This document shows positions 4,897 to 25,653 of a stretch of DNA of 32,000 nucleotides, in pieces (within the stretch, counting starts at the first letter, position 1; each line of letters opens with the position of its first letter). The stretch is from Pseudomonadota bacterium. GTDB lineage: Bacteria > Pseudomonadota > Gammaproteobacteria > Burkholderiales > Thiobacillaceae. Location: contig JAJZPR010000010.1 in NCBI GenBank assembly GCA_021847835.1, positions 63,718-95,717 of the forward strand, read 5' to 3'. The notes beneath the pieces are model-generated. The model was not told the DNA's origin and made no database searches. It was given only the letters and a program-made list of their open reading frames with translations. Position numbers and translations under genes: made by a program.

Positions 4897-4911
4897 AACA
4901 GGCACAAGGGG

Positions 4912-4963: not shown

Positions 4964-4972
4964 CTCCCGAAA

Positions 4973-5653: not shown

Positions 5654-5657
5654 TCCC

Positions 5658-5765
5658 CAGGGATCAGGATTCAGGGGTCAGGATTCAGAGGATGTGCCGC
5701 CGATGGCGGCGCATGTTCTCAAAGAGCGCCTAGCGCTTTCCCTGATTCCTGAATCCTGATCCCTG
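5658..5765. repeat. 18-bp perfect inverted repeat bracketing the gph-trpE spacer
   Basis: CAGGGATCAGGATTCAGG (5658-5675) pairs with CCTGAATCCTGATCCCTG (5748-5765). Inner hairpins are GCCGCC-GAT-GGCGGC and AGCGC-CTA-GCGCT. Confidence 0.75.
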
Positions 5766-5775
5766 ACCCCTGAAC

Positions 5776-7224
<1,449 letters not shown>

Positions 7225-7276
7225 CGCAGCTTGATCGTGGCGAGGCTGCCGCCACAACCCCTCACGCCTTACGCTT

Positions 7277-8599: not shown

Positions 8600-8615
8600 C
8601 GTTTGCTTGTTTGAT

Positions 8616-8646
8616 TGTCATGACAAACCAGAACGTTGTCATGACA
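8616..8646. promoter_or_regulatory. Two perfect 10-bp palindromes TGTCATGACA, candidate enhancer (UAS) sites for the adjacent sigma-54 activator
   Basis: TGTCATGACA occurs at 8616-8625 and 8637-8646, 21 bp centre to centre, about 80-100 bp upstream of the -24 element. A further half-site, ACATGTCA, lies at 8653-8660. Confidence 0.5.
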
Positions 8647-8717
8647 GGAATAACATGTCAAGCTTGGGTGCAAGAGGCGCCCCCTCTATTGTTCGTGCAT
8701 GAACGTCCTGTTCAGAC

Positions 8718-8732
8718 TGGCATGGTAATTGC
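8718..8732 (+). promoter_or_regulatory. Sigma-54 (-24/-12) promoter for sqr
   Basis: TGGCATGGTAATTGC matches TGGCAC-N5-TTGC (GG at 8719-8720, GC at 8731-8732). It lies about 65 bp upstream of the sqr ATG and next to a sigma-54 activator gene. Confidence 0.65.
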
Positions 8733-8796
8733 CCTCAAGTATGCACGCCTGCCAGGCAGGCGCATTCCGACAAACAAAACACGGAGACAAACTGAT

Positions 8797-10205: not shown

Positions 10206-10222
10206 ATGCTGCTCATGATCGA
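10206..10222 (+). repeat. attL core (native first 17 nt of trpG)
   Basis: ATGCTGCTCATGATCGA. It is preceded by the native SD AGGAGA (10190-10195) and differs from the other two cores only at position 9 (C versus A, a synonymous Leu change). Confidence 0.85.
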
Positions 10223-10274
10223 AAAGCATGATGCAAATCCGGCAACGTCCTTTCTGATCCGATACCCCATATAA
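10206..10274 (+). pseudogene. Orphaned native trpG start fused to element DNA (22-codon chimeric ORF MLLMIEKHDANPATSFLIRYPI)
   Basis: The native RBS and ATG are followed by 17 nt of trpG and then element sequence, with a stop at 10272-10274. Confidence 0.6.
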
Positions 10275-10341
10275 AACCTAGTGTTTACGCGGAATAGAAG
10301 GCCGTAAACAACCGGCATCATCCGTTGCCATCCGGGAAAAA

Positions 10342-10381
10342 TGGGGGTATCTTTGGGGGTATCAATAGCCCGGTACCCCCA
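10342..10381. repeat. Arm-type repeats TGGGGGTA(T/C)C x3 (two direct, one inverted) abutting the int start
   Basis: Copies at 10342-10351 and 10355-10364, plus an inverted copy GGTACCCCCA at 10372-10381. The same motif recurs at the other end of the element. Confidence 0.6.
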
Positions 10382-10383
10382 TC

Positions 10384-11664
10384 ATGGCACTGACCGACGC
10401 GAGCATCCGCAACAAGAAACCCACAGAGAAGCAATACAAGGTTTCCGATGCTGGCGGGCTGTATCTGCTGGTAAAGCCGAGCGGCGCGAAGCTGTGGCGC
10501 TTGAAGTACCGCATAGATGGCAAGGAAAACGTTTTTGCCATCGGCGAGTATTGCGAAGCCCCGAGGGCTGAGACAGCCGCCGACGCCACCATCCGAAAAG
10601 CATCCGGGCGCTACACCTTGGCCGAAGCCCGGCAGGAACGCGAGCGCTGCAAAGGGCTAATCAGGCACGGCATACACCCGGCGCATAACCGGAAGGCCGA
10701 CGCGGCAAAACGATCCGCCGAAAACGCCAATACCTTCGAGGCCGTTGCGCGGGAATGGATAGCCAAGAAAACGCCCGGATGGACGGCGTACTACCTGCGG
10801 CAAGTCGAGCGATTCCTAGAGGCTGACGTTTTTCCCTATATCGGCAGCCTGCCGATTCGCAACGTGACGGCGGCGCACCTGCTGGAAATCGTGCGGCGTA
10901 TTGAGGGGCGCGGCGCTGCATCCGTGGCCTTGCTGGTGCGGCAATGGGCTTCGGCGATATTCCGCTATGCCGTGGCGACCTTGCGGGCGGATACCGATCC
11001 AGCATCGGCGTTGAAGGGCGCGATTCACCGGCCAAAGATTGAGCATCACAAGCCGCTATCCCGCGACCAAGTGGGCGACTTCGTGAAAGCGCTTGATTCC
11101 TATGGCGGGTATCGGACTACGGTAATCGCCCTGCGCCTGATGCTGCTGACCTTCGTTCGCACCGTGGAGCTGCGGGGAGCGCACTGGACGGAAATCGACC
11201 TTGACCGGGCGGAATGGCGCATCCCCGCTGAGCGCATGAAGATGCGGGAGCCGCACATTGTCCCCTTGTCCCGGCAAGCCGTGGAACTGCTGACGGAACT
11301 GAAAACGCACACCGGCGGGCGTAGTTTTCTGTTCCCCAACTACCGCAACCCGCAAACCTGCATGACGGCAACGACGTTGAATCGAGCGCTGGAACGCATG
11401 GGCTTCAACGGCAAAGACAGCATCGGCTTTTCGGCGCACGGATTCCGGGCAACGGCTTCAACCATGCTGAACGAATTGAGTTTTCGTTCCGAAGTGATCG
11501 AGCGCCAGCTAGCCCATGCCGAACGAAACAAGGTGCGGGCCACCTACAACCAAGGCGAATACATGGAAGAGCGGCGGGCCATGATGCAGCAATGGGCAAA
11601 CCTGACCGACGAAATGGCGAAGAGCGAAAACAAGGTGACACCGATTAAGCAGGCGGCGGCATAA
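10384..11664 (+). CDS. int: Tyrosine integrase, P4-like (N-terminal DUF4102 arm-binding domain)
   Basis: MALTDASIRNKKPTEKQYKVSDAGGLYLLVKPSGAKLWRLKYR is the classic P4-integrase N-terminus. The catalytic region has RTVELRGAHW, HGFRATAST and RATYNQGEY. Confidence 0.92.
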   Translation: MALTDASIRNKKPTEKQYKVSDAGGLYLLVKPSGAKLWRLKYRIDGKENVFAIGEYCEAPRAETAADATIRKASGRYTLAEARQERERCKGLIRHGIHPAHNRKADAAKRSAENANTFEAVAREWIAKKTPGWTAYYLRQVERFLEADVFPYIGSLPIRNVTAAHLLEIVRRIEGRGAASVALLVRQWASAIFRYAVATLRADTDPASALKGAIHRPKIEHHKPLSRDQVGDFVKALDSYGGYRTTVIALRLMLLTFVRTVELRGAHWTEIDLDRAEWRIPAERMKMREPHIVPLSRQAVELLTELKTHTGGRSFLFPNYRNPQTCMTATTLNRALERMGFNGKDSIGFSAHGFRATASTMLNELSFRSEVIERQLAHAERNKVRATYNQGEYMEERRAMMQQWANLTDEMAKSENKVTPIKQAAA

Positions 11665-11757
11665 AGGTTTGCCGCGCCTAGCCCGACGGGGCGAAAACCG
11701 GGACACCCTTGCCCGGCTGGCGTGGCACCCAATCAAGGGCGGCGCGAAAGGGGCGCG

Positions 11758-12717
11758 ATGAATATGGCAAAGGCCTACTCCTGGGGTGATCTGTCCTCAC
11801 AGGATTTAATCCAGCTTCTCGACTTGGTATCCGAGGAAAGGCTAAATGAGGTCTTTTATCCTGTATCAGAGACAAAGCCTGGTATGGGCCTATTCGGCGG
11901 CTGGAAGAATCATAGTTCGCATCCACTGCATCCCGACTATATCCAACCAGTCACTTGGGTTAACGAAGGTCGTGGCCTCCTCGAATTGATGGTGATTGAT
12001 CATGTGGCCGAACGCGAAAGACAAGCTGAACGCGAGAGACAAACCGAACGCGAAAAACAAGCTGAACGCGAGTTACAGGCCGAGCGTGTCAGCAAGCATT
12101 GGCAAGTGATCAAGACGAACAATGCTTTTCAGCTACTGGAGTCCGATGCGAATTTCAAGAAGGCTCATGCTGTCTTTGAGCAGAAGCAGAGAGCTGCGGT
12201 AGATGGCGACCTATACGCACATCCGTTTGCAGAATTTCGTTTTATTGATTCGGTTTCTTCAACTGCCGGATGGTTCCTTCTAACCGACGGCAAGGCTTTC
12301 AACTGGCCGATCCCTGACAAGAAGGCGATAGGCAAGGCGCGCGGCCATGCGTGGGCGATGCTGGATACCTTTGACAAGGATGGCGTCAAACTGCCCGGCT
12401 ATCAGAAACAATTTAGCCTCAAAGCCTTGCTTTCTGAATTGGCCGATCAACTCGATGTGCAATACAAATCAGGTCGCGCTGCATGGGGTGGAAAAAATCG
12501 GCCCTATCGGGTTTTAGTTCAGACCTTGGCTAATGCTTTGCGGCGGCATTTTGGTGAAGTGTCCCCTGAAATCGTGCTGTCGTTGGCTGCGATGGTTAGC
12601 TGCCCATTTACAGAAAAGACGATCAATAACCAGTTGAATGATTCAAAGGAAAAACATCGCCAAGCCTTAGCGAGAGCCTTATTAAGCCAAGGAAAAAATT
12701 CATCCAAATTCGGCTGA
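11758..12717 (+). CDS. Hypothetical protein, 319 aa, with an ERERQAERERQTEREKQAERELQAER charged repeat (element cargo)
   Basis: Long ORF with coding-like, non-shadow composition. GAAAGGGG lies 5-12 nt upstream of ATG 11758. The region is visibly more AT-rich than the neighbouring genes. No family recognised. Confidence 0.65.
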   Translation: MNMAKAYSWGDLSSQDLIQLLDLVSEERLNEVFYPVSETKPGMGLFGGWKNHSSHPLHPDYIQPVTWVNEGRGLLELMVIDHVAERERQAERERQTEREKQAERELQAERVSKHWQVIKTNNAFQLLESDANFKKAHAVFEQKQRAAVDGDLYAHPFAEFRFIDSVSSTAGWFLLTDGKAFNWPIPDKKAIGKARGHAWAMLDTFDKDGVKLPGYQKQFSLKALLSELADQLDVQYKSGRAAWGGKNRPYRVLVQTLANALRRHFGEVSPEIVLSLAAMVSCPFTEKTINNQLNDSKEKHRQALARALLSQGKNSSKFG

Positions 12718-12796
12718 TTTTTTACTTATAGCTGGTTCAATACCAGAAGGATGATGCATCTACCGGCCAGCAACGGCCATTTATGGATCATCCCGA

Positions 12797-13012
12797 ATGA
12801 AACAACTTCCCGAGACCGGTTTCCTGAGATTGCGCCAAATTATCGGCGACCCAAAAGCGGAACCGCCGATCCCCGCGATCATCCCCGTAAAAAAATCCTG
12901 CTGGTGGGAGGGCTGCCGATCCGGTCGTTTCCCCAAGCCTGTGAAACTCGGGCCGCGTGTGACGGCGTGGCCTGTTGAATCCATCCGCGCCCTAGTCGAG
13001 TCTTTGAAATAA
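12797..13012 (+). CDS. alpA: AlpA-family transcriptional regulator / excisionase
   Basis: 71 aa; the FLRLRQI...GRFPKPVKLGPRVTAWPVESIRALV pattern matches AlpA/Xis (FPKPVKLGPR..W). Its position between int and the primase is typical. Confidence 0.8.
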   Translation: MKQLPETGFLRLRQIIGDPKAEPPIPAIIPVKKSCWWEGCRSGRFPKPVKLGPRVTAWPVESIRALVESLK

Positions 13013-13023
13013 GGGGCGCGACC

Positions 13024-13266
13024 ATGACCACAAAAACAACGGGCCGCGCTGGCTGGCACCAGGCGACCCAAGAAACTACACACAAGCAAGATATTACCGC
13101 ACCGACGCGCCAGATAGCCATGCTGTCAGCGCTCAAGCGGCGCATTTGGCTGTTGGGCTATGAGCTTGAAGAGGCCCGCCAGCTTCATGCTGCCCGTGGG
13201 CATTTCTGGAAAGAGGCCGGGGCGTGCATCGCTTTGGCGTTTCTGCGGTTTGGGAGGCTGGTATGA
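13024..13266 (+). CDS. Hypothetical small protein (80 aa)
   Basis: Its stop overlaps the primase start in an ATGA arrangement at 13263-13266, consistent with translational coupling. No family recognised. Confidence 0.5.
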   Translation: MTTKTTGRAGWHQATQETTHKQDITAPTRQIAMLSALKRRIWLLGYELEEARQLHAARGHFWKEAGACIALAFLRFGRLV

Positions 13267-15812
13267 GCAACCGCATCCGTGAAGCGCTGCAATTCATCCC
13301 CGCCGTTGACCGCGAAACCTGGGTGAAGATGGGTATGGCCGTTAAATCCGAGCTTGGGGACGCTGGCTTTGGCTTGTGGGAAGGCTGGAGCCAGCAAGCC
13401 GACACCTTCAACGCCAAAGATGCGCGGGACGTGTGGAAGAGCATCCGCATCAATGGCAAGGTGACGGCGGGGACGCTGTTCCATGAGGCCAAGGCGAACG
13501 GCTGGCGCGACGATGGAACGCACCAGAGGCCGACGCCCGAAGAGCTTGCGGAGCGCCAACGCATCGAGAAATACGCGCGCGCGCGCGAGGAAGCCCGGAC
13601 AGCTTCGGAACGTGTCGAGGCCGCGAAGAAGTCGGCGGCTGTCTGGAAGGCGGCAGCGGAAGCGAAACCCGATCATCCCTATCTTGTCCGCAAGCGCGTT
13701 TCGCCGGTAGCAACCCTGCGCGAGATTGACGCGGGCGCTGCGGCTGCGATCCTGGGCTATGCGCCGAAGTCGAGCGGCGAACCTTTGGCCGGGCGCTTGC
13801 TGGTGGCACCCGTCAAAGTCGGGGACGGGCTTTCGACGCTGGAACTGATCGACCCGGGCGGGCGCAAATCCGCTGTCTATGGCGGCGCGAAGGCGGGCGG
13901 ATATTGGGCGGCGCAACCGCTACACGATGGCGACGGGCTGACCCTGCTTATCGGCGAAGGCGTGGCGACCGTGCTAACGGCGAAGGAATCCAGCGGACAC
14001 CCGACAATCGCGGCGCTGTCGGCTGGCAATCTGCCAGCTGTGGCGAAGGCGATGCGCGAACGCTACCCGTCGGCGGCGCTGGTGATTCTGGCCGATCTGG
14101 TGAAGGCGACCGGCGCACCCGATCCCCATGCAGTCGAGGCGGCGCAATCTGTCGGCGGAAAGCTGGCTATTCCTGACTTCGGTAATAAAGAACGGCCAAA
14201 TAATGCGACCGACTTTAACGACCTGGCGGCGCTATGCGGGACGGAAGCCGTAGGACGCGCCATAGCGAACGCAAGCGAACCGGATAAGGCTTTGCCTCAA
14301 ACCGACCAAGAAAACGCAACAGCGCCAATCCTGACCGGGCAGGTTTGGCCGGAGTCGCAACCGTTGACCGCGAAGGTGGCACCAGAGCCTTACCCAATCG
14401 ACGCGCTACCCAAAACCATCCGGGCGGCGGTGGAAGAGGTGGCGGGCTTCGTCAAGGCACCTTTGCCAATGGTGGCATCGTCGGCACTGGCCGCGCTTTC
14501 GTTGGCAACCCAAGCTCATATCGACGTGAAGCGGGCGGAACGGCTGCAAGGGCCAGTCGGGTTATTCCTGCTGACCATCGCCGATTCGGGCGAGCGGAAA
14601 TCAACCTGCGACGGCTTCTTTACGTCGGCAATCCGCCAGTATCAGGAAGAGCAAGCCGAGGCGATGAAACCGGCAATCAAGGAATATCAAGCCGAGATTG
14701 CCGCATGGGAAGCCGAGCGCGACGGGATATTGTCGGCGATAAAGTGCGCGGCTAAATCAGGCAAGGCGACCAACAATCTGCGGGTCGATCTTGCCGACCT
14801 TCAACGCGACAAGCCGGAAGCGCCGAGAGTGCCGAGGCTGCTGCTGGGCGACGAAACCCCTGAGAACCTTGCGTGGGGGCTTGCCAAGAATTGGCCGTCG
14901 GCGGGCGTGGTATCTGCCGAGGCCGGGATTGTTTTCGGGGCGCACGGCATGAGCAAGGATTCGGTTATGCGGAATCTTGGCCTGTTGAATGTCCTATGGG
15001 ATGGCGGTTCGCATTCCGTCGGGCGGCGGACTTCGGAATCCTTCACAGTCAAAGGGGCGCGGCTGACCGTGGCTTTGCAGATTCAGGAAATGACCCTGCG
15101 GAGTTTCTTCGACCGATCCGGCGGGCTGGCGCGTGGGACGGGCTTCCTTGCCCGGTTTCTGGTGGCGTGGCCTAAATCGACGCAAGGCTTTCGCCCCTTC
15201 ACCGAAGCCCCGCCGAACTGGCCGCACTTGGCCGCATTCCATCAACGCATCGCGGCGATTCTGGCGAACCCGGTTCCTATTGATGATGACGGGGCGCTAT
15301 CCCCCGCATTGATGATGCTGGCACCGGAAGCAAAGGCGGCATGGGTAGCCTTCCACGATGCAATCGAGAGCGAACTAGCCAGCGGTGGCGAGCTATACGA
15401 CGTGCGGGACGTGGCGAGTAAATCCGCCGACAACGCGGCACGGCTGGGGGCGTTGTTCCAGATATTCGAGCACGGCATGGGCGGCGCTGTCGGGCTGGAA
15501 TGTTTCGAGTCGGCAAGCCGGATTGCGGCATGGCACCTGAACGAATCACGGCGATTCTTTGGTGAGCTTGCGCTACCTGCTGAACTGGCGGACGCGGCGC
15601 GGCTGGATAGCTGGCTGGTCGATTATTGCCAGCGAGAGCAAAGGCATTCCGTTAGCAAGAATCACGTCCGCCAGCATGGGCCATTGCGGGACGGGGCGCG
15701 ACTTGATGCGGCGATCCGCGAGCTTGCCGAGCTTGAACGGCTGCGGCTGCTGAAGGAAGGAAAGCGTCTGACCATCCAACTCAATCCGGCATTAGCAGGG
15801 GTGACAGCATGA
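13263..15812 (+). CDS. Primase/helicase-type replication protein (PriCT-2 N-domain, Toprim, DUF3987 C-domain)
   Basis: ALQFIPAVDRETWVKMGMAVKSELGDAGFGLWEGWSQQ (PriCT-2-like); LLIGEGVATVLT...ALVILADL...TDFNDL (Toprim); YPIDALP...LFLLTIADSGERKST... (DUF3987). The start was chosen at 13263, after GGGAGG. Confidence 0.88.
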   Translation: MSNRIREALQFIPAVDRETWVKMGMAVKSELGDAGFGLWEGWSQQADTFNAKDARDVWKSIRINGKVTAGTLFHEAKANGWRDDGTHQRPTPEELAERQRIEKYARAREEARTASERVEAAKKSAAVWKAAAEAKPDHPYLVRKRVSPVATLREIDAGAAAAILGYAPKSSGEPLAGRLLVAPVKVGDGLSTLELIDPGGRKSAVYGGAKAGGYWAAQPLHDGDGLTLLIGEGVATVLTAKESSGHPTIAALSAGNLPAVAKAMRERYPSAALVILADLVKATGAPDPHAVEAAQSVGGKLAIPDFGNKERPNNATDFNDLAALCGTEAVGRAIANASEPDKALPQTDQENATAPILTGQVWPESQPLTAKVAPEPYPIDALPKTIRAAVEEVAGFVKAPLPMVASSALAALSLATQAHIDVKRAERLQGPVGLFLLTIADSGERKSTCDGFFTSAIRQYQEEQAEAMKPAIKEYQAEIAAWEAERDGILSAIKCAAKSGKATNNLRVDLADLQRDKPEAPRVPRLLLGDETPENLAWGLAKNWPSAGVVSAEAGIVFGAHGMSKDSVMRNLGLLNVLWDGGSHSVGRRTSESFTVKGARLTVALQIQEMTLRSFFDRSGGLARGTGFLARFLVAWPKSTQGFRPFTEAPPNWPHLAAFHQRIAAILANPVPIDDDGALSPALMMLAPEAKAAWVAFHDAIESELASGGELYDVRDVASKSADNAARLGALFQIFEHGMGGAVGLECFESASRIAAWHLNESRRFFGELALPAELADAARLDSWLVDYCQREQRHSVSKNHVRQHGPLRDGARLDAAIRELAELERLRLLKEGKRLTIQLNPALAGVTA

Positions 15813-16357
15813 GCCTGCTATCGGCGCTGATCCAAAAACGTGAAACCCGGAAGGCTGCTACTGCTATTCCTGCTATTTCTGCTACTCAACCGAAGGAAGG
15901 GGCGGCAACAGTAGCAAGAATAGCAACAGTAGCAGTAGCAAACCCCACGGATGCAAAAACGACCGATGCTGTGACTTCGTGGGGCTGGCTGTTGCACTTC
16001 GCCGACCGTGAGCCGCTGGAAGTCTATTGCAACCCGGACGCGACCCATGCCGAGATACTGGAACGCTATCCCGATGCACTGGCAGCGGAGCCGATACCGG
16101 AGCGCACCAGGCGAACGCCGACCGAAGCCGAGGCGGCGGAACTGCGGGCGCTGGTGCAAACCATTGGCGAGGCTGAGCAATGGACGGCTGACGAAATCGA
16201 ATGGGCAACGGCTGGGGCGCTGGCCGATCCTGACGGGGCGCTGATCTGCTTTCAAGATATAGCGAGAGGCTTCAATGCAGCCGTTGAGAACAACGATAGA
16301 ACAGTGAAGAGAGTCCTGAAAACAGGCATCAATCAGGAGGCAAATAATGACTGGTAA
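15809..16357 (+). CDS. Hypothetical protein (182 aa)
   Basis: Its ATG overlaps the primase stop (ATGA at 15809-15812). The 5' part contains the iteron-like inverted array. No family recognised. Confidence 0.6.
   Translation: MSLLSALIQKRETRKAATAIPAISATQPKEGAATVARIATVAVANPTDAKTTDAVTSWGWLLHFADREPLEVYCNPDATHAEILERYPDALAAEPIPERTRRTPTEAEAAELRALVQTIGEAEQWTADEIEWATAGALADPDGALICFQDIARGFNAAVENNDRTVKRVLKTGINQEANNDW
15854..15940. repeat. Imperfect ~33-bp inverted repeat built from CTGCTA/TAGCAG pentamer-hexamer iterations (candidate ori)
   Basis: Left arm GCTGCTACTGCTATTCCTGCTATTTCTGCTACT (15854-15886); right arm AGTAGCAAGAATAGCAACAGTAGCAGTAGCA (15910-15940); a 23-nt spacer separates them. Confidence 0.6.
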
Positions 16358-17039
16358 CAGTACCCAAACAGATAAACGGGCGACCAAACCGAAGAAACCG
16401 GCGGCACCGAAAGCGGAGGCATTCCCGCGAAAAGCGATCCCCCTAAAATCAGGCCCGAGCGCCGACGAGAAAGGGCGGGTCTATGCGAGCCTCATAACCT
16501 CCCCCGAGCTTGCCGCGCATCGTGTCATAGGGATGATGCAGCCGAAGAACATTGCGGATGAAATCGACACCCCCACGATGCTGGAAACCCTGCGCGATCA
16601 AGCGGCGGCGGTACAGCGTGGCGACCTGTCCCATGCCGAAGCGATGCTGATAAATCAGGCGTCGGCGCTGCAAGCCCTGTTTGTGCGGCTTTCTGAAAGA
16701 GCCATGGAGCAAGCCCATATGCCTAACCTTGAAGGCTTCATGCGGATGGCACTGCGGGCGCAATCGCAATGCCGGGCGACTTTGGAAACGCTGGCAACGA
16801 TCAAGAATCCGCCGATTGTTTACGCGAAGCAGGCCAACTTTGCGGCGGGTCATCAGCAAGTCAACAACGGCACACCTGACCCTACGCGGGCGCGAGAAAT
16901 CGAAAACGAGCAATCCCAACTATCAGGGGGAAACCATGAGCTATTATCGGACGCCCGAGCATCGGGCGAAGCAAGCCGAACGAATCCGACGCTGGAAACC
17001 CTGGGAGAAATCGACCGGGCCGAAATCCGAAGAGGGTAA
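16347..17039 (+). CDS. Hypothetical protein (230 aa), Lys/Pro-rich N-terminus
   Basis: AGGAGG at 16334-16339 precedes ATG 16347, which overlaps the end of the upstream ORF. Composition is coding-like. Confidence 0.6.
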   Translation: MTGNSTQTDKRATKPKKPAAPKAEAFPRKAIPLKSGPSADEKGRVYASLITSPELAAHRVIGMMQPKNIADEIDTPTMLETLRDQAAAVQRGDLSHAEAMLINQASALQALFVRLSERAMEQAHMPNLEGFMRMALRAQSQCRATLETLATIKNPPIVYAKQANFAAGHQQVNNGTPDPTRAREIENEQSQLSGGNHELLSDARASGEASRTNPTLETLGEIDRAEIRRG

Positions 17040-17139
17040 GCGGCGATCCGCGATGCGCGGGTATAAGGGCGGAACCCGTAAGCTGTTGCGTGAACTGGCG
17101 CGGCTGTTACGGGAGCAAGCCGAAGCATTTAGGCGCTAA
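16936..17139 (+). CDS. Hypothetical small basic protein (67 aa, MSYYRTPEHRAKQAERIRRWKPWEKSTGPKSEEGK...)
   Basis: Internal start of the 152-aa track ORF, with AGGGGGA at 16925-16931 5 nt upstream. It overlaps the 3' end of the 230-aa ORF by 104 nt in another frame. Confidence 0.5.
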   Translation: MSYYRTPEHRAKQAERIRRWKPWEKSTGPKSEEGKRRSAMRGYKGGTRKLLRELARLLREQAEAFRR

Positions 17140-17145
17140 CGACGG

Positions 17146-17397
17146 TTAGCGGTTATTTTTCCAGGAAGCGCCATTAGCCCCGCAATTCCGCTCTAGGCCG
17201 TTCATCACCGCGCTGGCATCGTATTCGCCGCTTCTGAAGCCATCTACTGATGCTTGAACGTAGGCCCTGCAATTTATTGGTGCGCCGAAGTCCTCGCCAT
17301 ACTCGGCTTCCTTGTTGTCGTCAAAAGCGGAACCCCAATGGGCAACAGCAAAGATAATTCCCGCGACGATCCATCCAGCGCTGCAATCGCTTTCCAT
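17146..17397 (-). CDS. Small membrane-anchored or secreted Cys-containing protein (83 aa)
   Basis: The only minus-strand gene in the element. A strong SD (GGGAAAGAGGG) lies just upstream of the ATG. Hydrophobic N-terminus GWIVAGIIFAVAHW, with Cys at positions 5, 43 and 72. Confidence 0.55.
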   Translation of the reverse strand: MESDCSAGWIVAGIIFAVAHWGSAFDDNKEAEYGEDFGAPINCRAYVQASVDGFRSGEYDASAVMNGLERNCGANGASWKNNR

Positions 17398-17552
17398 TCC
17401 CTCTTTCCCTTCCGTTTTGTTTTTTTGTGAGCTTCCTGTCGGCTGTTTTTAGTTGCATCTTCAAGCTACGGCTTGGTGGGCGACGGTTTGAGGCGCAGCC
17501 GATATGGGGGACAATAACCGCTTTTCCTGGATTCGGTTTCGACTCGCCCGGC

Positions 17553-17592
17553 TTGGGTATCAATCGAAAAAGGGGGTATTCATGGGGGTATC
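17553..17592. repeat. Arm-type repeats at the right end of the element (TTGGGTATCAAT, GGGGGTATT, TGGGGGTATC)
   Basis: Same motif family as 10342-10381. Lies 50-90 bp upstream of the core at 17645. Confidence 0.55.
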
Positions 17593-17644
17593 TGCGAGCA
17601 ATGTCTGGTCAGCGATCCATGTAAATCAATAGGATGCAAGCATT

Positions 17645-17661
17645 ATGCTGCTAATGATCGA
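17645..17661 (+). repeat. Inter-copy core (intact attP-type junction)
   Basis: ATGCTGCTAATGATCGA, flanked on the left by the element's right end and on the right by its left end. Confidence 0.85.
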
Positions 17662-17780
17662 AAAGCATGATGCAAATCCGGCAACGTCCTTTCTGATCCG
17701 ATACCCCATATAAAACCTAGTGTTTACGCGGAATAGAAGGCCGTAAACAACCGGCATCATCCGTTGCCATCCGGGAAAAA

Positions 17781-17820
17781 TGGGGGTATCTTTGGGGGTA
17801 TCAATAGCCCGGTACCCCCA
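17781..17820. repeat. Arm-type repeats TGGGGGTA(T/C)C x3, copy 2
   Basis: Same as 10342-10381, shifted by 7,439. Confidence 0.6.
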
Positions 17821-17822
17821 TC

Positions 17823-19103
17823 ATGGCACTGACCGACGCGAGCATCCGCAACAAGAAACCCACAGAGAAGCAATACAAGGTTTCCGATGCTGGCGGGCTG
17901 TATCTGCTGGTAAAGCCGAGCGGCGCGAAGCTGTGGCGCTTGAAGTACCGCATAGATGGCAAGGAAAACGTTTTTGCCATCGGCGAGTATTGCGAAGCCC
18001 CGAGGGCTGAGACAGCCGCCGACGCCACCATCCGAAAAGCATCCGGGCGCTACACCTTGGCCGAAGCCCGGCAGGAACGCGAGCGCTGCAAAGGGCTAAT
18101 CAGGCACGGCATACACCCGGCGCATAACCGGAAGGCCGACGCGGCAAAACGATCCGCCGAAAACGCCAATACCTTCGAGGCCGTTGCGCGGGAATGGATA
18201 GCCAAGAAAACGCCCGGATGGACGGCGTACTACCTGCGGCAAGTCGAGCGATTCCTAGAGGCTGACGTTTTTCCCTATATCGGCAGCCTGCCGATTCGCA
18301 ACGTGACGGCGGCGCACCTGCTGGAAATCGTGCGGCGTATTGAGGGGCGCGGCGCTGCATCCGTGGCCTTGCTGGTGCGGCAATGGGCTTCGGCGATATT
18401 CCGCTATGCCGTGGCGACCTTGCGGGCGGATACCGATCCAGCATCGGCGTTGAAGGGCGCGATTCACCGGCCAAAGATTGAGCATCACAAGCCGCTATCC
18501 CGCGACCAAGTGGGCGACTTCGTGAAAGCGCTTGATTCCTATGGCGGGTATCGGACTACGGTAATCGCCCTGCGCCTGATGCTGCTGACCTTCGTTCGCA
18601 CCGTGGAGCTGCGGGGAGCGCACTGGACGGAAATCGACCTTGACCGGGCGGAATGGCGCATCCCCGCTGAGCGCATGAAGATGCGGGAGCCGCACATTGT
18701 CCCCTTGTCCCGGCAAGCCGTGGAACTGCTGACGGAACTGAAAACGCACACCGGCGGGCGTAGTTTTCTGTTCCCCAACTACCGCAACCCGCAAACCTGC
18801 ATGACGGCAACGACGTTGAATCGAGCGCTGGAACGCATGGGCTTCAACGGCAAAGACAGCATCGGCTTTTCGGCGCACGGATTCCGGGCAACGGCTTCAA
18901 CCATGCTGAACGAATTGAGTTTTCGTTCCGAAGTGATCGAGCGCCAGCTAGCCCATGCCGAACGAAACAAGGTGCGGGCCACCTACAACCAAGGCGAATA
19001 CATGGAAGAGCGGCGGGCCATGATGCAGCAATGGGCAAACCTGACCGACGAAATGGCGAAGAGCGAAAACAAGGTGACACCGATTAAGCAGGCGGCGGCA
19101 TAA
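17823..19103 (+). CDS. int: Tyrosine integrase, P4-like (copy 2)
   Basis: Translation identical to 10384-11664. Confidence 0.92.
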   Translation: MALTDASIRNKKPTEKQYKVSDAGGLYLLVKPSGAKLWRLKYRIDGKENVFAIGEYCEAPRAETAADATIRKASGRYTLAEARQERERCKGLIRHGIHPAHNRKADAAKRSAENANTFEAVAREWIAKKTPGWTAYYLRQVERFLEADVFPYIGSLPIRNVTAAHLLEIVRRIEGRGAASVALLVRQWASAIFRYAVATLRADTDPASALKGAIHRPKIEHHKPLSRDQVGDFVKALDSYGGYRTTVIALRLMLLTFVRTVELRGAHWTEIDLDRAEWRIPAERMKMREPHIVPLSRQAVELLTELKTHTGGRSFLFPNYRNPQTCMTATTLNRALERMGFNGKDSIGFSAHGFRATASTMLNELSFRSEVIERQLAHAERNKVRATYNQGEYMEERRAMMQQWANLTDEMAKSENKVTPIKQAAA

Positions 19104-19196
19104 AGGTTTGCCGCGCCTAGCCCGACGGGGCGAAAACCGGGACACCCTTGCCCGGCTGGCGTGGCACCCAATCAAGGGCGGCGCGAAAGGGGCGCG

Positions 19197-20156
19197 ATGA
19201 ATATGGCAAAGGCCTACTCCTGGGGTGATCTGTCCTCACAGGATTTAATCCAGCTTCTCGACTTGGTATCCGAGGAAAGGCTAAATGAGGTCTTTTATCC
19301 TGTATCAGAGACAAAGCCTGGTATGGGCCTATTCGGCGGCTGGAAGAATCATAGTTCGCATCCACTGCATCCCGACTATATCCAACCAGTCACTTGGGTT
19401 AACGAAGGTCGTGGCCTCCTCGAATTGATGGTGATTGATCATGTGGCCGAACGCGAAAGACAAGCTGAACGCGAGAGACAAACCGAACGCGAAAAACAAG
19501 CTGAACGCGAGTTACAGGCCGAGCGTGTCAGCAAGCATTGGCAAGTGATCAAGACGAACAATGCTTTTCAGCTACTGGAGTCCGATGCGAATTTCAAGAA
19601 GGCTCATGCTGTCTTTGAGCAGAAGCAGAGAGCTGCGGTAGATGGCGACCTATACGCACATCCGTTTGCAGAATTTCGTTTTATTGATTCGGTTTCTTCA
19701 ACTGCCGGATGGTTCCTTCTAACCGACGGCAAGGCTTTCAACTGGCCGATCCCTGACAAGAAGGCGATAGGCAAGGCGCGCGGCCATGCGTGGGCGATGC
19801 TGGATACCTTTGACAAGGATGGCGTCAAACTGCCCGGCTATCAGAAACAATTTAGCCTCAAAGCCTTGCTTTCTGAATTGGCCGATCAACTCGATGTGCA
19901 ATACAAATCAGGTCGCGCTGCATGGGGTGGAAAAAATCGGCCCTATCGGGTTTTAGTTCAGACCTTGGCTAATGCTTTGCGGCGGCATTTTGGTGAAGTG
20001 TCCCCTGAAATCGTGCTGTCGTTGGCTGCGATGGTTAGCTGCCCATTTACAGAAAAGACGATCAATAACCAGTTGAATGATTCAAAGGAAAAACATCGCC
20101 AAGCCTTAGCGAGAGCCTTATTAAGCCAAGGAAAAAATTCATCCAAATTCGGCTGA
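19197..20156 (+). CDS. Hypothetical 319-aa coiled-coil cargo protein (copy 2)
   Basis: Identical to 11758-12717. Confidence 0.65.
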   Translation: MNMAKAYSWGDLSSQDLIQLLDLVSEERLNEVFYPVSETKPGMGLFGGWKNHSSHPLHPDYIQPVTWVNEGRGLLELMVIDHVAERERQAERERQTEREKQAERELQAERVSKHWQVIKTNNAFQLLESDANFKKAHAVFEQKQRAAVDGDLYAHPFAEFRFIDSVSSTAGWFLLTDGKAFNWPIPDKKAIGKARGHAWAMLDTFDKDGVKLPGYQKQFSLKALLSELADQLDVQYKSGRAAWGGKNRPYRVLVQTLANALRRHFGEVSPEIVLSLAAMVSCPFTEKTINNQLNDSKEKHRQALARALLSQGKNSSKFG

Positions 20157-20235
20157 TTTTTTACTTATAGCTGGTTCAATACCAGAAGGATGATGCATCT
20201 ACCGGCCAGCAACGGCCATTTATGGATCATCCCGA

Positions 20236-20451
20236 ATGAAACAACTTCCCGAGACCGGTTTCCTGAGATTGCGCCAAATTATCGGCGACCCAAAAGCGGA
20301 ACCGCCGATCCCCGCGATCATCCCCGTAAAAAAATCCTGCTGGTGGGAGGGCTGCCGATCCGGTCGTTTCCCCAAGCCTGTGAAACTCGGGCCGCGTGTG
20401 ACGGCGTGGCCTGTTGAATCCATCCGCGCCCTAGTCGAGTCTTTGAAATAA
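20236..20451 (+). CDS. alpA: AlpA-family regulator / excisionase (copy 2)
   Basis: Identical to 12797-13012. Confidence 0.8.
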   Translation: MKQLPETGFLRLRQIIGDPKAEPPIPAIIPVKKSCWWEGCRSGRFPKPVKLGPRVTAWPVESIRALVESLK

Positions 20452-20462
20452 GGGGCGCGACC

Positions 20463-20705
20463 ATGACCACAAAAACAACGGGCCGCGCTGGCTGGCACCA
20501 GGCGACCCAAGAAACTACACACAAGCAAGATATTACCGCACCGACGCGCCAGATAGCCATGCTGTCAGCGCTCAAGCGGCGCATTTGGCTGTTGGGCTAT
20601 GAGCTTGAAGAGGCCCGCCAGCTTCATGCTGCCCGTGGGCATTTCTGGAAAGAGGCCGGGGCGTGCATCGCTTTGGCGTTTCTGCGGTTTGGGAGGCTGG
20701 TATGA
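20463..20705 (+). CDS. Hypothetical small protein, 80 aa (copy 2)
   Basis: Identical to 13024-13266. Confidence 0.5.
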   Translation: MTTKTTGRAGWHQATQETTHKQDITAPTRQIAMLSALKRRIWLLGYELEEARQLHAARGHFWKEAGACIALAFLRFGRLV

Positions 20706-23251
20706 GCAACCGCATCCGTGAAGCGCTGCAATTCATCCCCGCCGTTGACCGCGAAACCTGGGTGAAGATGGGTATGGCCGTTAAATCCGAGCTTGGGGAC
20801 GCTGGCTTTGGCTTGTGGGAAGGCTGGAGCCAGCAAGCCGACACCTTCAACGCCAAAGATGCGCGGGACGTGTGGAAGAGCATCCGCATCAATGGCAAGG
20901 TGACGGCGGGGACGCTGTTCCATGAGGCCAAGGCGAACGGCTGGCGCGACGATGGAACGCACCAGAGGCCGACGCCCGAAGAGCTTGCGGAGCGCCAACG
21001 CATCGAGAAATACGCGCGCGCGCGCGAGGAAGCCCGGACAGCTTCGGAACGTGTCGAGGCCGCGAAGAAGTCGGCGGCTGTCTGGAAGGCGGCAGCGGAA
21101 GCGAAACCCGATCATCCCTATCTTGTCCGCAAGCGCGTTTCGCCGGTAGCAACCCTGCGCGAGATTGACGCGGGCGCTGCGGCTGCGATCCTGGGCTATG
21201 CGCCGAAGTCGAGCGGCGAACCTTTGGCCGGGCGCTTGCTGGTGGCACCCGTCAAAGTCGGGGACGGGCTTTCGACGCTGGAACTGATCGACCCGGGCGG
21301 GCGCAAATCCGCTGTCTATGGCGGCGCGAAGGCGGGCGGATATTGGGCGGCGCAACCGCTACACGATGGCGACGGGCTGACCCTGCTTATCGGCGAAGGC
21401 GTGGCGACCGTGCTAACGGCGAAGGAATCCAGCGGACACCCGACAATCGCGGCGCTGTCGGCTGGCAATCTGCCAGCTGTGGCGAAGGCGATGCGCGAAC
21501 GCTACCCGTCGGCGGCGCTGGTGATTCTGGCCGATCTGGTGAAGGCGACCGGCGCACCCGATCCCCATGCAGTCGAGGCGGCGCAATCTGTCGGCGGAAA
21601 GCTGGCTATTCCTGACTTCGGTAATAAAGAACGGCCAAATAATGCGACCGACTTTAACGACCTGGCGGCGCTATGCGGGACGGAAGCCGTAGGACGCGCC
21701 ATAGCGAACGCAAGCGAACCGGATAAGGCTTTGCCTCAAACCGACCAAGAAAACGCAACAGCGCCAATCCTGACCGGGCAGGTTTGGCCGGAGTCGCAAC
21801 CGTTGACCGCGAAGGTGGCACCAGAGCCTTACCCAATCGACGCGCTACCCAAAACCATCCGGGCGGCGGTGGAAGAGGTGGCGGGCTTCGTCAAGGCACC
21901 TTTGCCAATGGTGGCATCGTCGGCACTGGCCGCGCTTTCGTTGGCAACCCAAGCTCATATCGACGTGAAGCGGGCGGAACGGCTGCAAGGGCCAGTCGGG
22001 TTATTCCTGCTGACCATCGCCGATTCGGGCGAGCGGAAATCAACCTGCGACGGCTTCTTTACGTCGGCAATCCGCCAGTATCAGGAAGAGCAAGCCGAGG
22101 CGATGAAACCGGCAATCAAGGAATATCAAGCCGAGATTGCCGCATGGGAAGCCGAGCGCGACGGGATATTGTCGGCGATAAAGTGCGCGGCTAAATCAGG
22201 CAAGGCGACCAACAATCTGCGGGTCGATCTTGCCGACCTTCAACGCGACAAGCCGGAAGCGCCGAGAGTGCCGAGGCTGCTGCTGGGCGACGAAACCCCT
22301 GAGAACCTTGCGTGGGGGCTTGCCAAGAATTGGCCGTCGGCGGGCGTGGTATCTGCCGAGGCCGGGATTGTTTTCGGGGCGCACGGCATGAGCAAGGATT
22401 CGGTTATGCGGAATCTTGGCCTGTTGAATGTCCTATGGGATGGCGGTTCGCATTCCGTCGGGCGGCGGACTTCGGAATCCTTCACAGTCAAAGGGGCGCG
22501 GCTGACCGTGGCTTTGCAGATTCAGGAAATGACCCTGCGGAGTTTCTTCGACCGATCCGGCGGGCTGGCGCGTGGGACGGGCTTCCTTGCCCGGTTTCTG
22601 GTGGCGTGGCCTAAATCGACGCAAGGCTTTCGCCCCTTCACCGAAGCCCCGCCGAACTGGCCGCACTTGGCCGCATTCCATCAACGCATCGCGGCGATTC
22701 TGGCGAACCCGGTTCCTATTGATGATGACGGGGCGCTATCCCCCGCATTGATGATGCTGGCACCGGAAGCAAAGGCGGCATGGGTAGCCTTCCACGATGC
22801 AATCGAGAGCGAACTAGCCAGCGGTGGCGAGCTATACGACGTGCGGGACGTGGCGAGTAAATCCGCCGACAACGCGGCACGGCTGGGGGCGTTGTTCCAG
22901 ATATTCGAGCACGGCATGGGCGGCGCTGTCGGGCTGGAATGTTTCGAGTCGGCAAGCCGGATTGCGGCATGGCACCTGAACGAATCACGGCGATTCTTTG
23001 GTGAGCTTGCGCTACCTGCTGAACTGGCGGACGCGGCGCGGCTGGATAGCTGGCTGGTCGATTATTGCCAGCGAGAGCAAAGGCATTCCGTTAGCAAGAA
23101 TCACGTCCGCCAGCATGGGCCATTGCGGGACGGGGCGCGACTTGATGCGGCGATCCGCGAGCTTGCCGAGCTTGAACGGCTGCGGCTGCTGAAGGAAGGA
23201 AAGCGTCTGACCATCCAACTCAATCCGGCATTAGCAGGGGTGACAGCATGA
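20702..23251 (+). CDS. Primase/helicase-type replication protein (copy 2)
   Basis: Identical to 13263-15812. Confidence 0.88.
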   Translation: MSNRIREALQFIPAVDRETWVKMGMAVKSELGDAGFGLWEGWSQQADTFNAKDARDVWKSIRINGKVTAGTLFHEAKANGWRDDGTHQRPTPEELAERQRIEKYARAREEARTASERVEAAKKSAAVWKAAAEAKPDHPYLVRKRVSPVATLREIDAGAAAAILGYAPKSSGEPLAGRLLVAPVKVGDGLSTLELIDPGGRKSAVYGGAKAGGYWAAQPLHDGDGLTLLIGEGVATVLTAKESSGHPTIAALSAGNLPAVAKAMRERYPSAALVILADLVKATGAPDPHAVEAAQSVGGKLAIPDFGNKERPNNATDFNDLAALCGTEAVGRAIANASEPDKALPQTDQENATAPILTGQVWPESQPLTAKVAPEPYPIDALPKTIRAAVEEVAGFVKAPLPMVASSALAALSLATQAHIDVKRAERLQGPVGLFLLTIADSGERKSTCDGFFTSAIRQYQEEQAEAMKPAIKEYQAEIAAWEAERDGILSAIKCAAKSGKATNNLRVDLADLQRDKPEAPRVPRLLLGDETPENLAWGLAKNWPSAGVVSAEAGIVFGAHGMSKDSVMRNLGLLNVLWDGGSHSVGRRTSESFTVKGARLTVALQIQEMTLRSFFDRSGGLARGTGFLARFLVAWPKSTQGFRPFTEAPPNWPHLAAFHQRIAAILANPVPIDDDGALSPALMMLAPEAKAAWVAFHDAIESELASGGELYDVRDVASKSADNAARLGALFQIFEHGMGGAVGLECFESASRIAAWHLNESRRFFGELALPAELADAARLDSWLVDYCQREQRHSVSKNHVRQHGPLRDGARLDAAIRELAELERLRLLKEGKRLTIQLNPALAGVTA

Positions 23252-23796
23252 GCCTGCTATCGGCGCTGATCCAAAAACGTGAAACCCGGAAGGCTGCTAC
23301 TGCTATTCCTGCTATTTCTGCTACTCAACCGAAGGAAGGGGCGGCAACAGTAGCAAGAATAGCAACAGTAGCAGTAGCAAACCCCACGGATGCAAAAACG
23401 ACCGATGCTGTGACTTCGTGGGGCTGGCTGTTGCACTTCGCCGACCGTGAGCCGCTGGAAGTCTATTGCAACCCGGACGCGACCCATGCCGAGATACTGG
23501 AACGCTATCCCGATGCACTGGCAGCGGAGCCGATACCGGAGCGCACCAGGCGAACGCCGACCGAAGCCGAGGCGGCGGAACTGCGGGCGCTGGTGCAAAC
23601 CATTGGCGAGGCTGAGCAATGGACGGCTGACGAAATCGAATGGGCAACGGCTGGGGCGCTGGCCGATCCTGACGGGGCGCTGATCTGCTTTCAAGATATA
23701 GCGAGAGGCTTCAATGCAGCCGTTGAGAACAACGATAGAACAGTGAAGAGAGTCCTGAAAACAGGCATCAATCAGGAGGCAAATAATGACTGGTAA
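23248..23796 (+). CDS. Hypothetical protein, 182 aa (copy 2)
   Basis: Identical to 15809-16357. Confidence 0.6.
   Translation: MSLLSALIQKRETRKAATAIPAISATQPKEGAATVARIATVAVANPTDAKTTDAVTSWGWLLHFADREPLEVYCNPDATHAEILERYPDALAAEPIPERTRRTPTEAEAAELRALVQTIGEAEQWTADEIEWATAGALADPDGALICFQDIARGFNAAVENNDRTVKRVLKTGINQEANNDW
23293..23379. repeat. Iteron-like inverted array (copy 2)
   Basis: Same as 15854-15940, shifted by 7,439. Confidence 0.6.
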
Positions 23797-24478
23797 CAGT
23801 ACCCAAACAGATAAACGGGCGACCAAACCGAAGAAACCGGCGGCACCGAAAGCGGAGGCATTCCCGCGAAAAGCGATCCCCCTAAAATCAGGCCCGAGCG
23901 CCGACGAGAAAGGGCGGGTCTATGCGAGCCTCATAACCTCCCCCGAGCTTGCCGCGCATCGTGTCATAGGGATGATGCAGCCGAAGAACATTGCGGATGA
24001 AATCGACACCCCCACGATGCTGGAAACCCTGCGCGATCAAGCGGCGGCGGTACAGCGTGGCGACCTGTCCCATGCCGAAGCGATGCTGATAAATCAGGCG
24101 TCGGCGCTGCAAGCCCTGTTTGTGCGGCTTTCTGAAAGAGCCATGGAGCAAGCCCATATGCCTAACCTTGAAGGCTTCATGCGGATGGCACTGCGGGCGC
24201 AATCGCAATGCCGGGCGACTTTGGAAACGCTGGCAACGATCAAGAATCCGCCGATTGTTTACGCGAAGCAGGCCAACTTTGCGGCGGGTCATCAGCAAGT
24301 CAACAACGGCACACCTGACCCTACGCGGGCGCGAGAAATCGAAAACGAGCAATCCCAACTATCAGGGGGAAACCATGAGCTATTATCGGACGCCCGAGCA
24401 TCGGGCGAAGCAAGCCGAACGAATCCGACGCTGGAAACCCTGGGAGAAATCGACCGGGCCGAAATCCGAAGAGGGTAA
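23786..24478 (+). CDS. Hypothetical protein, 230 aa (copy 2)
   Basis: Identical to 16347-17039. Confidence 0.6.
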   Translation: MTGNSTQTDKRATKPKKPAAPKAEAFPRKAIPLKSGPSADEKGRVYASLITSPELAAHRVIGMMQPKNIADEIDTPTMLETLRDQAAAVQRGDLSHAEAMLINQASALQALFVRLSERAMEQAHMPNLEGFMRMALRAQSQCRATLETLATIKNPPIVYAKQANFAAGHQQVNNGTPDPTRAREIENEQSQLSGGNHELLSDARASGEASRTNPTLETLGEIDRAEIRRG

Positions 24479-24578
24479 GCGGCGATCCGCGATGCGCGGG
24501 TATAAGGGCGGAACCCGTAAGCTGTTGCGTGAACTGGCGCGGCTGTTACGGGAGCAAGCCGAAGCATTTAGGCGCTAA
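24375..24578 (+). CDS. Hypothetical small basic protein, 67 aa (copy 2)
   Basis: Identical to 16936-17139. Confidence 0.5.
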   Translation: MSYYRTPEHRAKQAERIRRWKPWEKSTGPKSEEGKRRSAMRGYKGGTRKLLRELARLLREQAEAFRR

Positions 24579-24584
24579 CGACGG

Positions 24585-24836
24585 TTAGCGGTTATTTTTC
24601 CAGGAAGCGCCATTAGCCCCGCAATTCCGCTCTAGGCCGTTCATCACCGCGCTGGCATCGTATTCGCCGCTTCTGAAGCCATCTACTGATGCTTGAACGT
24701 AGGCCCTGCAATTTATTGGTGCGCCGAAGTCCTCGCCATACTCGGCTTCCTTGTTGTCGTCAAAAGCGGAACCCCAATGGGCAACAGCAAAGATAATTCC
24801 CGCGACGATCCATCCAGCGCTGCAATCGCTTTCCAT
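24585..24836 (-). CDS. Small membrane-anchored or secreted protein, 83 aa (copy 2)
   Basis: Identical to 17146-17397. Confidence 0.55.
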   Translation of the reverse strand: MESDCSAGWIVAGIIFAVAHWGSAFDDNKEAEYGEDFGAPINCRAYVQASVDGFRSGEYDASAVMNGLERNCGANGASWKNNR

Positions 24837-24991
24837 TCCCTCTTTCCCTTCCGTTTTGTTTTTTTGTGAGCTTCCTGTCGGCTGTTTTTAGTTGCATCTT
24901 CAAGCTACGGCTTGGTGGGCGACGGTTTGAGGCGCAGCCGATATGGGGGACAATAACCGCTTTTCCTGGATTCGGTTTCGACTCGCCCGGC

Positions 24992-25031
24992 TTGGGTATC
25001 AATCGAAAAAGGGGGTATTCATGGGGGTATC
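24992..25031. repeat. Right-end arm-type repeats (copy 2)
   Basis: Same as 17553-17592, shifted by 7,439. Confidence 0.55.
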
Positions 25032-25083
25032 TGCGAGCAATGTCTGGTCAGCGATCCATGTAAATCAATAGGATGCAAGCATT

Positions 25084-25100
25084 ATGCTGCTAATGATCGA
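25084..25100 (+). repeat. attR core = the functional start of trpG
   Basis: ATGCTGCTAATGATCGA, followed by native trpG sequence (CAACTACGAC...). Confidence 0.85.
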
Positions 25101-25653
25101 CAACTACGACAGCTTCACCTACAACCTCGTGCAGTATTTCGGCGAGCTGGGCGAAGACGTGAAGGTGATGCGCAACGACGAGATCGACCTTGCCGGCGTG
25201 GCGGCCTTGAAGCCCGATCACATCGTCATCTCGCCGGGGCCCTGCACGCCCACCGAGGCGGGCATTTCCGTGCCCTTGATCCGCGAATTCGCCGGCAAGG
25301 TGCCCATCCTCGGCGTGTGCCTCGGCCACCAGAGCATCGGCCAGGCCTTCGGCGGCAGGATCGTGCACGCGAAAGCGCTCATGCACGGCAAGACCTCCAT
25401 GATCCGCCACAAGGACGTGGGCGTGTTCCGCGGCCTGCCCAATCCTTTCCGCGCCACGCGCTACCACTCGCTGGTGATCGAGCGCGAGTCGCTGCCCGAT
25501 TGCCTGGAAATCACCGCCTGGACCGACGACGGCGAGATCATGGGCGTGCGCCACAAAACGCTGGCGGTGGAAGGCGTGCAGTTCCACCCCGAGTCCATCC
25601 TCACCGAACACGGCCACGCCATGCTGGCCAACTTCCTCAAGGGGCATGCTTGA
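25084..25653 (+). CDS. trpG: Anthranilate synthase component II (glutamine amidotransferase)
   Basis: [26 protein letters not shown] (catalytic Cys) and GVQFHPES. The first 17 nt and all upstream DNA are element-derived. Confidence 0.92.

Follow-up and report, generated by a model that had tools for sequence, protein, structure and literature searches.

Repeat structure and attachment sites at trpG

The window analyzed here, a stretch of 32,000 nucleotides (nt) from contig JAJZPR010000010.1 of a Thiobacillaceae genome (GCA_021847835.1), displays two head-to-tail units of a small integrative element situated between sqr and trpG, within the opening 17 nt of trpG. To the left lie trpE (positions 5776-7224), a sigma-54 activator gene on the reverse strand (7277-8599), and, on the forward strand, sqr, which encodes a sulfide:quinone-reductase-like flavoprotein (8611-10065); to the right lies trpG (25084-25653, forward strand), which encodes a class I glutamine amidotransferase (GATase) and is followed by trpD and trpC. 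These Pfam-based gene calls agree with the flanks named in the original prediction, an earlier reading of the letters of this window that described two identical tandem copies of an integrative element. A tRNA or transfer-messenger RNA (tmRNA) gene as the target of integration was ruled out, since the window contains no such gene, and the target is trpG itself.

Direct comparison of the units at 10206-17644 and 17645-25083, each of 7,439 nt, yields a single mismatch, at offset 8, and all open reading frames (ORFs) of the first unit are found again 7,439 nt downstream, as the original prediction had claimed. At this period, identity is exact over 7,447 nt (10215-17661 against 17654-25100, with no N), which rules out a chance or low-complexity repeat, and a window-wide repeat search found no second long repeat elsewhere. 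Beyond its core, the second unit (17662-25083, forward strand) has the same letters as 10223-17644 and the same genes. The full pairwise alignment that had been proposed thus places the only difference between the units at position 9 of a 17-nt core, where the first unit has C (10214) and the second has A (17653), as has the third core (25092). Three cores do begin at 10206, 17645, and 25084, as predicted, but they are not identical, the first matching the others at only 16 of 17 positions.

All three cores are on the forward strand, and their sequence corresponds to the first 17 nt of trpG (MLLMID...). The attL core (ATGCTGCTCATGATCGA, 10206-10222) has at position 9 the C of the host attB, whereas the A is present both in the central, attP-type core (ATGCTGCTAATGATCGA, 17645-17661), where the right end of the first unit meets the left end of the second, and in the attR core (ATGCTGCTAATGATCGA, 25084-25100), which supplies trpG codons 1 to 6. 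An empty site was located by an exact-protein look-up of TrpG and Sqr: in L002 (GCA_040960215.1), trpG comes directly after sqr as ...GGAGATGCAGCCGCC-ATGCTGCTCATGATCGA-CAACTACGAC..., an unoccupied attB with C at core position 9, and L002 is 100% identical to the window until 10222 and matches again from 25084. With its own tyrosine integrase, a direct-repeat core as in the empty attB, and precise boundaries, the unit is a site-specific integrative element, the identity originally assigned to it. The two flanks of L002 agree with the window to different degrees, 100% on the left (2,838 nt) and 99.6% on the right (24 mismatches, 2 gaps), an asymmetry that points to recombination between strains near the site or to a mixture of strains there.

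Because attL has the host C and both the central junction and attR have the element A, strand exchange would fall rightward of position 9, within ATGATCGA. Across nine relatives for which both cores were recovered, the differences between attL and attR are confined to core positions 6 to 9, except in L028, whose attR holds one substitution (ATGATTGA); ATGATCGA is invariant in the other relatives.

The left end of unit 1, or P' arm (10223-10383, forward strand), carries GGGGGTATC-type repeats, with copy 2 equivalents at 17700-17821, and the right end, or P arm (17500-17644, forward strand), carries conserved GGGGTATC repeats and is itself strongly conserved among relatives. About seven GGGGGTATC-type repeats are spread over both arms of the attP region (17505-17821). 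They may represent arm-type sites for the integrase (Int), consistent with the Arm-DNA-bind_3 domain of this protein. The central junction therefore has the composition of an intact attP (right end, core, and left end, with candidate arm-type repeats on both sides), as had been proposed. On its trpG side, the right end closes with a near-invariant ...TGTAAATCAATAGGATGCAAGC directly upstream of the core ATG, which contributes an AGGA and appears to furnish trpG with a replacement AGGA-type ribosome-binding site. The right end of the element would in this way substitute the native trpG leader and start by a synonymous copy, such that TrpG stays intact; the trpG gene in the window is indeed intact, with its first 17 nt re-supplied by the element.

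Gene content and relatives of the element

Except for the last gene, all features of the element are on the forward strand, and the coordinates given are those of the first copy unless the second is named. A promoter-like site (10325-10353; copy 2, 17764-17792) lies upstream of int (10384-11664; copy 2, 17823-19103), whose product is a tyrosine integrase of the P4/CP4-57 type with the domains Arm-DNA-bind_3, Phage_int_M, and Phage_integrase. Its score of 258 bits against NCBIfam PRK09692 (NF007246) is under the 434-bit cutoff of this model, which makes it a P4/CP4-57-type relative and not an equivalog. An int-alpA RNA (Rfam RF02996; 11671-11739; copy 2, 19110-19178) was recovered with 76.5 bits against a gathering threshold of 35.8, and the motif lies directly after the int stop codon. 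There follow a 319-amino-acid (aa) protein (11758-12717, in an ORF open from 11722), in which an 18-nt repeat at 12010-12071 gives rise to an ER(E/Q)RQ coiled-coil and whose gene slot is variable among relatives, and an AlpA-like regulator, a candidate excisionase (12797-13012), which reaches PF05930 only marginally (21.2 bits against a cutoff of 21) and occurs with exactly the same sequence in seven further contigs.

The second half of the element begins with an 80-aa protein conserved in relatives (13024-13266) and a primase-helicase (13263-15812, in an ORF open from 13224) with PriCT_2, Toprim_3, and DUF3987 domains (E = 2e-95), assigned in PHROGs to DNA primase / DNA helicase; these domain matches confirm the replication protein named in the original prediction. 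Downstream are genes for a 182-aa protein (15809-16357), an all-helical 230-aa protein, p230 (16347-17039; copy 2, 23786-24478), and a 67-aa basic protein, p67 (MSYYRTPEHRAKQ...; 16936-17139), then a terminator-like hairpin (17134-17151) and, on the reverse strand, a gene for an 83-aa protein (17146-17397). The unannotated proteins of the element have no match in Pfam, PHROGs, NCBIfam, or PADLOC; PADLOC returned no defense cargo, and domain searches of the element proteins found no relaxase domain.

The family of p230 is very large, with 4,276 matches (3,962 cluster representatives at the 50% level), all of them termed "hypothetical" and none with a Pfam family. For p230, no significant match among PDB sequences emerged from a profile search, and its AlphaFold model, a helical hairpin bundle (pLDDT of 79.6), has no Foldseek match at E < 0.1 in PDB or BFVD. 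It co-occurs with p67 in relatives and plasmids, and the only annotated neighbors of p230 are on the small plasmids pW9NP1 and pH8NP1 of cultured Polaromonas, which carry homologues of both proteins. The primase has no relative in IMG/VR, p230 has no match in phage genomes, and the attP pattern does not occur in IMG/VR.

We scanned one genome per species with the integrase, mapped the proteins of the window onto the resulting 80 loci, and scanned the same loci for cores. The best integrase matches are in metagenome-assembled genomes of Thiobacillus (95% identity), which points to a Thiobacillus-like host. Of the 40 closest loci (L009-L048), 32 have a trpG-type core approximately 178 nt upstream of int; these have an integrase identity of at least 67% and derive from Thiobacillus, Methyloversatilis, Azoarcus, Thauera, Accumulibacter, Pseudomonas, Rhodanobacter, Dyella, Pseudoxanthomonas, and other genera. 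The elements of these relatives usually have trpE or sqr on their 5' side and have trpG on their 3' side wherever the far end of the element is within view. The 5' end of trpG thus appears, from these loci, to be a conserved attachment site for this integrase clade across Beta- and Gammaproteobacteria. Both ends are visible in ten relatives (L009-L014, L028, L048, L089, and L117), each of which holds a single copy of 5.5 to 8.7 kb; none of the ten is a homologous tandem.

Other arrangements at the same site combine unlike elements. In L110/L111 (an IMG/VR provirus, positions 1-9839), lambda-like tail genes (J, L, I, and fibers) end in right-end-like sequence and a trpG-type core; they are followed by a second element with an int gene, and the whole amounts to a heterologous array in the trpE-trpG gap. 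In L089, an AbiEi/AbiEii pair (5326-7297) lies between trpE and attL and is followed by right-end-like sequence (atcaataggata...), and this segment may be the leftover of an earlier element. A comparable remnant suspected upstream of attL in L010 was rejected, the gap there being occupied by host flavocytochrome-c sulfide dehydrogenase genes.

The chromosomal surroundings contain further repeats. A second sqr-like flavoprotein gene on the reverse strand (27483-29033) brackets, together with that at 8611-10065 on the forward strand, the element and trpGDC, and the two genes share inverted segments of 72 to 90% similarity (9217-9396 with 28440-28619 and 9943-9990 with 27846-27893). Near the left edge of the window (128-405), an 18-nt unit (GGTTCCGGCGGCGGCATG-like) is repeated in tandem approximately 15 times and encodes a Gly/Ser/Met-rich repeat in the ORF located there.

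Chromosomal dimer or integrated copy with circles

As assembled, the window has the makeup of a tandem array, with two head-to-tail units bounded by attL and attR and an attP-type junction between them, such that attL, attP, and attR junctions coexist. The attP junction is probably real; sequence alone cannot place both units on one chromosome. Of the tandem array put forward in the original prediction, the head-to-tail units and the attP junction stand, and the physical linkage of the units on one chromosome is not established.

Circular forms were observed for relatives of the element only. For a relative of 6,938 bp with the core ATGCTGCTGATGATCGA, at least five datasets give a closed circle without branches. 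Three samples each yield a SPAdes contig of 6,993 nt, with exact 55-nt terminal overlaps and in three permutations (L096, L097, and L098), and the circle is also represented by a Logan contig of 6,968 nt with a 30-nt overlap (L099) and by a JGI contig of 6,938 nt (L100). That these cycles are unbranched implies that the chromosomal junctions of this relative are far rarer than its circle junction. A closer relative (approximately 82 to 95% nt identity in conserved segments) is integrated in L089 and is represented in two other datasets by contigs that cross attP (L090 and L091), and junctions of right end, core, and left end were assembled independently for relatives in L090, L091, and L095-L101. 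These assemblies point to an abundant extrachromosomal state in this family, which is consistent with the primase-helicase. One of the contigs, L090 (1-9133; ERZ534010, SPAdes), covers 1.15 units across attP, and the alpA modules at its two ends share just 91 nt at 96%; either co-existing variants were joined into a mosaic or the array itself is heterogeneous.

Other sequencing runs disclose both states of the trpG site. The Logan contig L006 stops exactly at 10222, the fork between attL and attB; L007 and L008, which contain attB, end at the equivalent of 25122, where the attB and attR paths merge at k=31; and L115 passes attR without a fork. These mixed states, along with the empty site of L002, imply that occupancy is polymorphic and that the element is mobile now or was so recently. 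No contig spanning attP or attL is on record when sought through the small ORFs at these junctions.

An independent view of the locus comes from ERZ27237050, a MEGAHIT metagenome assembly (k=141) of a near-identical strain, which differs from the window by one single-nucleotide polymorphism (SNP) in 10,355 nt of left flank, one SNP in 6,474 nt of right flank, and none in the element. Its left-flank contig ends at window position 10355 (10215 + 140), its element contig corresponds exactly to 10215-17661 (7,447 nt, a single collapsed copy), and its right-flank contig starts at 24960 (25100 - 140). These breaks are the unitig limits expected when the entry k-mer has both attL and attP as predecessors and the exit k-mer has both attP and attR as successors. 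A graph of attL, attR, and attB alone would instead break at 10222 and 25093, and the absence of such breaks indicates that no attB path survived in the graph. The assembly thus argues that attP junction reads exist in this sample and outnumber those of attB, and its topology would fit a true dimer and an integrated copy with circles equally well.

That there is no natural attP, and that the window stems from a scaffolding or consensus error (for example, one in which the element of two co-assembled strains was stitched head to tail), we consider very improbable. A second host context could explain the breakpoints of ERZ27237050, such hosts exist, and strain mixtures are evident from the SNPs and from the runs with mixed attB and attL. 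However, the central join is a precise succession of right end, core, and left end, equivalents of which were assembled independently in relatives, and stitching of strains would not create so exact an attP, whose core has the element-type A at position 9.

On balance, we lean toward the explanation that one integrated copy is accompanied by extrachromosomal circles and that an assembler unrolled the two into a dimer. The attP of the element would recombine with the first 17 nt of trpG, with strand exchange within the invariant ATGATCGA; the population would carry one integrated copy plus circular, replicating or packaged copies; and the assembler would unroll the resulting loop once, printing a perfect dimer. 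We infer this route through circle replication and assembly. Assemblers that resolve simple loops by coverage or best overlap can print the order flank, unit, junction, unit, and flank from such a mixture (although note that we found no directly citable statement on long-read duplication artifacts in the literature). Zero divergence over 7,447 nt is what a collapsed or unrolled loop yields, and the strongest prior for this explanation comes from the closed circles of relatives, together with the attP-crossing contigs L090 and L091. It is further favored by the single copies at all ten related loci, by the breaks in ERZ27237050, which show a loop topology and no attB branch, by the element-encoded primase-helicase and the homologues of p230 and p67 on Polaromonas plasmids, and by the coexistence of occupied and empty sites in other runs (L002 and L006-L008). 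Among the origins listed in the original prediction (a second integration, a replicated concatemer, or an artifact from a co-existing excised circle), the circles and the lack of a homologous tandem in ten loci shift the weight toward the last.

Several considerations weigh against an unrolled circle. The assembly artifact is itself inferred rather than demonstrated. Two copies did emerge from an assembler, which, if it worked on long reads of >15 kb, would have printed them only for a true dimer. An attB branch that is absent beside an attP branch fits a tandem, in which attL:attP:attR would be 1:1:1, at least as simply. The breakpoints in ERZ27237050 could also arise without attP, from an identical element in a second host strain; such a host would have other letters at core position 9 and at the base that follows the core, which is the case for the hosts of L010 and L012. 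Finally, tandem integration is well documented in other integrative elements (PMC2297512).

We regard as plausible, although less probable than an integrated copy with circles, a genuine and very recent chromosomal dimer in which attL, unit, attP, unit, and attR lie on one molecule. It would have formed when Int integrated a second circle into the resident attL or attR or when a replicative dimer integrated in one step, and it could resolve to a monomer and a circle through Int and AlpA (attL with the central site) or through RecA. The sequence of the window as assembled is that of such a dimer, and the C, A, and A of its three cores are exactly as either route predicts; as both predict the same pattern, the cores were rejected as a means to discriminate a second integration from integration of a dimer. 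ERZ27237050, with an attP-type branch and no surviving attB branch, agrees with a dimer as well, the family re-uses occupied sites (L110/L111 and L089), and the arrays of SGI1 and SXT offer a precedent (PMC2297512). Set against this, a homologous tandem is absent from all ten related integrated loci, and the abundant free circles of relatives are a simpler source of attP reads. Perfect direct repeats of 7.4 kb are, moreover, recombinationally unstable, and for a dimer to dominate a natural population would be unusual.

A more far-reaching version of the dimer, which we think unlikely, is that the element belongs to an undescribed and very abundant family of betaproteobacterial replicons of approximately 7 kb that alternate between integration at trpG and a multicopy circle, and that the window is a true dimer derived from a replicative multimer. 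Transcription of the second int, as of the int on a circle, would then proceed from the conserved right end through attP, in the manner of a Pcirc switch; that of the first int would come from the native trpG leader, and trpG itself would rely on the right end of the element.

Tandem arrays and excised circles of integrative elements are already known, textbook phenomena. A true dimer would show, at one moment in a natural setting, what is familiar from laboratory matings and from lysogeny (SGI1, SXT, and lambda); gene dosage would double, the chromosome would retain a complete attP, and a circle could readily be released with one copy left in place. The two int genes would then stand in different contexts, that of copy 2 after the conserved right end and that of copy 1 after the native trpG leader, both with the proximal promoter-like site. 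If the repeat is instead an artifact, integrated elements that are also episomal can print as perfect tandems, which inflates estimates of copy number and calls of recent duplication. Whichever applies, the analysis defines the first 17 nt of trpG, in the gap that houses the pyocins of Pseudomonas, as an attachment site, and it delineates a compact int-alpA-primase family. The conserved proteins of this family have relatives by the thousands that lack annotation, and its closed-circle forms are documented in several metagenomes. The site, the family, and the circles seem more worthy of follow-up than the duplication itself.

Comparison with known integrative elements

The integrase, the marginally scoring AlpA, and the int-alpA RNA make up an int-alpA module of the P4/CP4-57 type, and the left module (intA-alpA-yfjI) of the E. 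coli cryptic prophage CP4-57 has in common with the element a P4-type integrase, AlpA, a DUF3987/Toprim primase-helicase, an int-first gene order, and an int-alpA RNA. In CP4-57, AlpA increases the expression of int and triggers excision, and the AlpA of the element would, by analogy, do the same. The core of int, alpA, and primase is likewise that of Gram-negative phage-inducible chromosomal islands (PICIs) and P4-like satellites, and the PICI module of int, alpA or another regulator, and pri-rep is present. Together with the CP4-57 region, this core of Gram-negative PICIs is the closest counterpart of the module. Typical PICIs are larger than the 7.4-kb element, which targets trpG and no tRNA or tmRNA gene. 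The genes of a P4-like satellite (sid, psu, delta, and epsilon with the alpha primase) were not recovered as a set, PHROGs and Pfam recognizing only the integrase and the primase/helicase, and Pfam, PHROG, and PADLOC searches for capsid and packaging genes found no homologue of sid, psu, delta, terS, ppi, or rpp and no other match related to capsids or packaging. The unit is best described as a small integrative, apparently self-replicating element that resembles islands of the P4 and PICI types, its membership in either family being unproven.

With regard to the repeat, head-to-tail arrays are known from SGI1 (at trmE/thdF), SXT/R391 (at prfC), and lambda polylysogens, with attL and attR at the outer ends and an attP reconstituted where two copies meet. 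Such arrays arise when an element integrates beside a resident copy or when multimers integrate, the side of the crossover can be read from a one-base att polymorphism, and tandem arrays were present in 43% of wild-type SGI1 transconjugants, with SXT arrays also described (PMC2297512). The arrays of SGI1, SXT, and lambda were proven by Southern blotting, pulsed-field gel electrophoresis, or PCR in clonal isolates, whereas that in the window is an assembled sequence, probably metagenomic, and the element is six- to fourteen-fold smaller than those integrative elements and has no recognizable transfer functions.

A search of the accessible literature returned no description of an attachment site at the 5' end of trpG. 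The site has parallels in two systems. Integrases specific for dusA, the nearest analogy, also use the first codons of a housekeeping gene, with the end of the element restoring the 5' coding sequence, and they too form a clade that uses one site across many genera; the gene and the integrase clade differ from those at trpG (PMC4482086). The R and F pyocins of Pseudomonas aeruginosa occupy the same trpE-trpG gap (PMC7344871), but these clusters are domesticated and lack phage functions for genome packaging (PMC13624779), whereas the element at the trpG of this Thiobacillaceae genome is small, intact, and apparently mobile.

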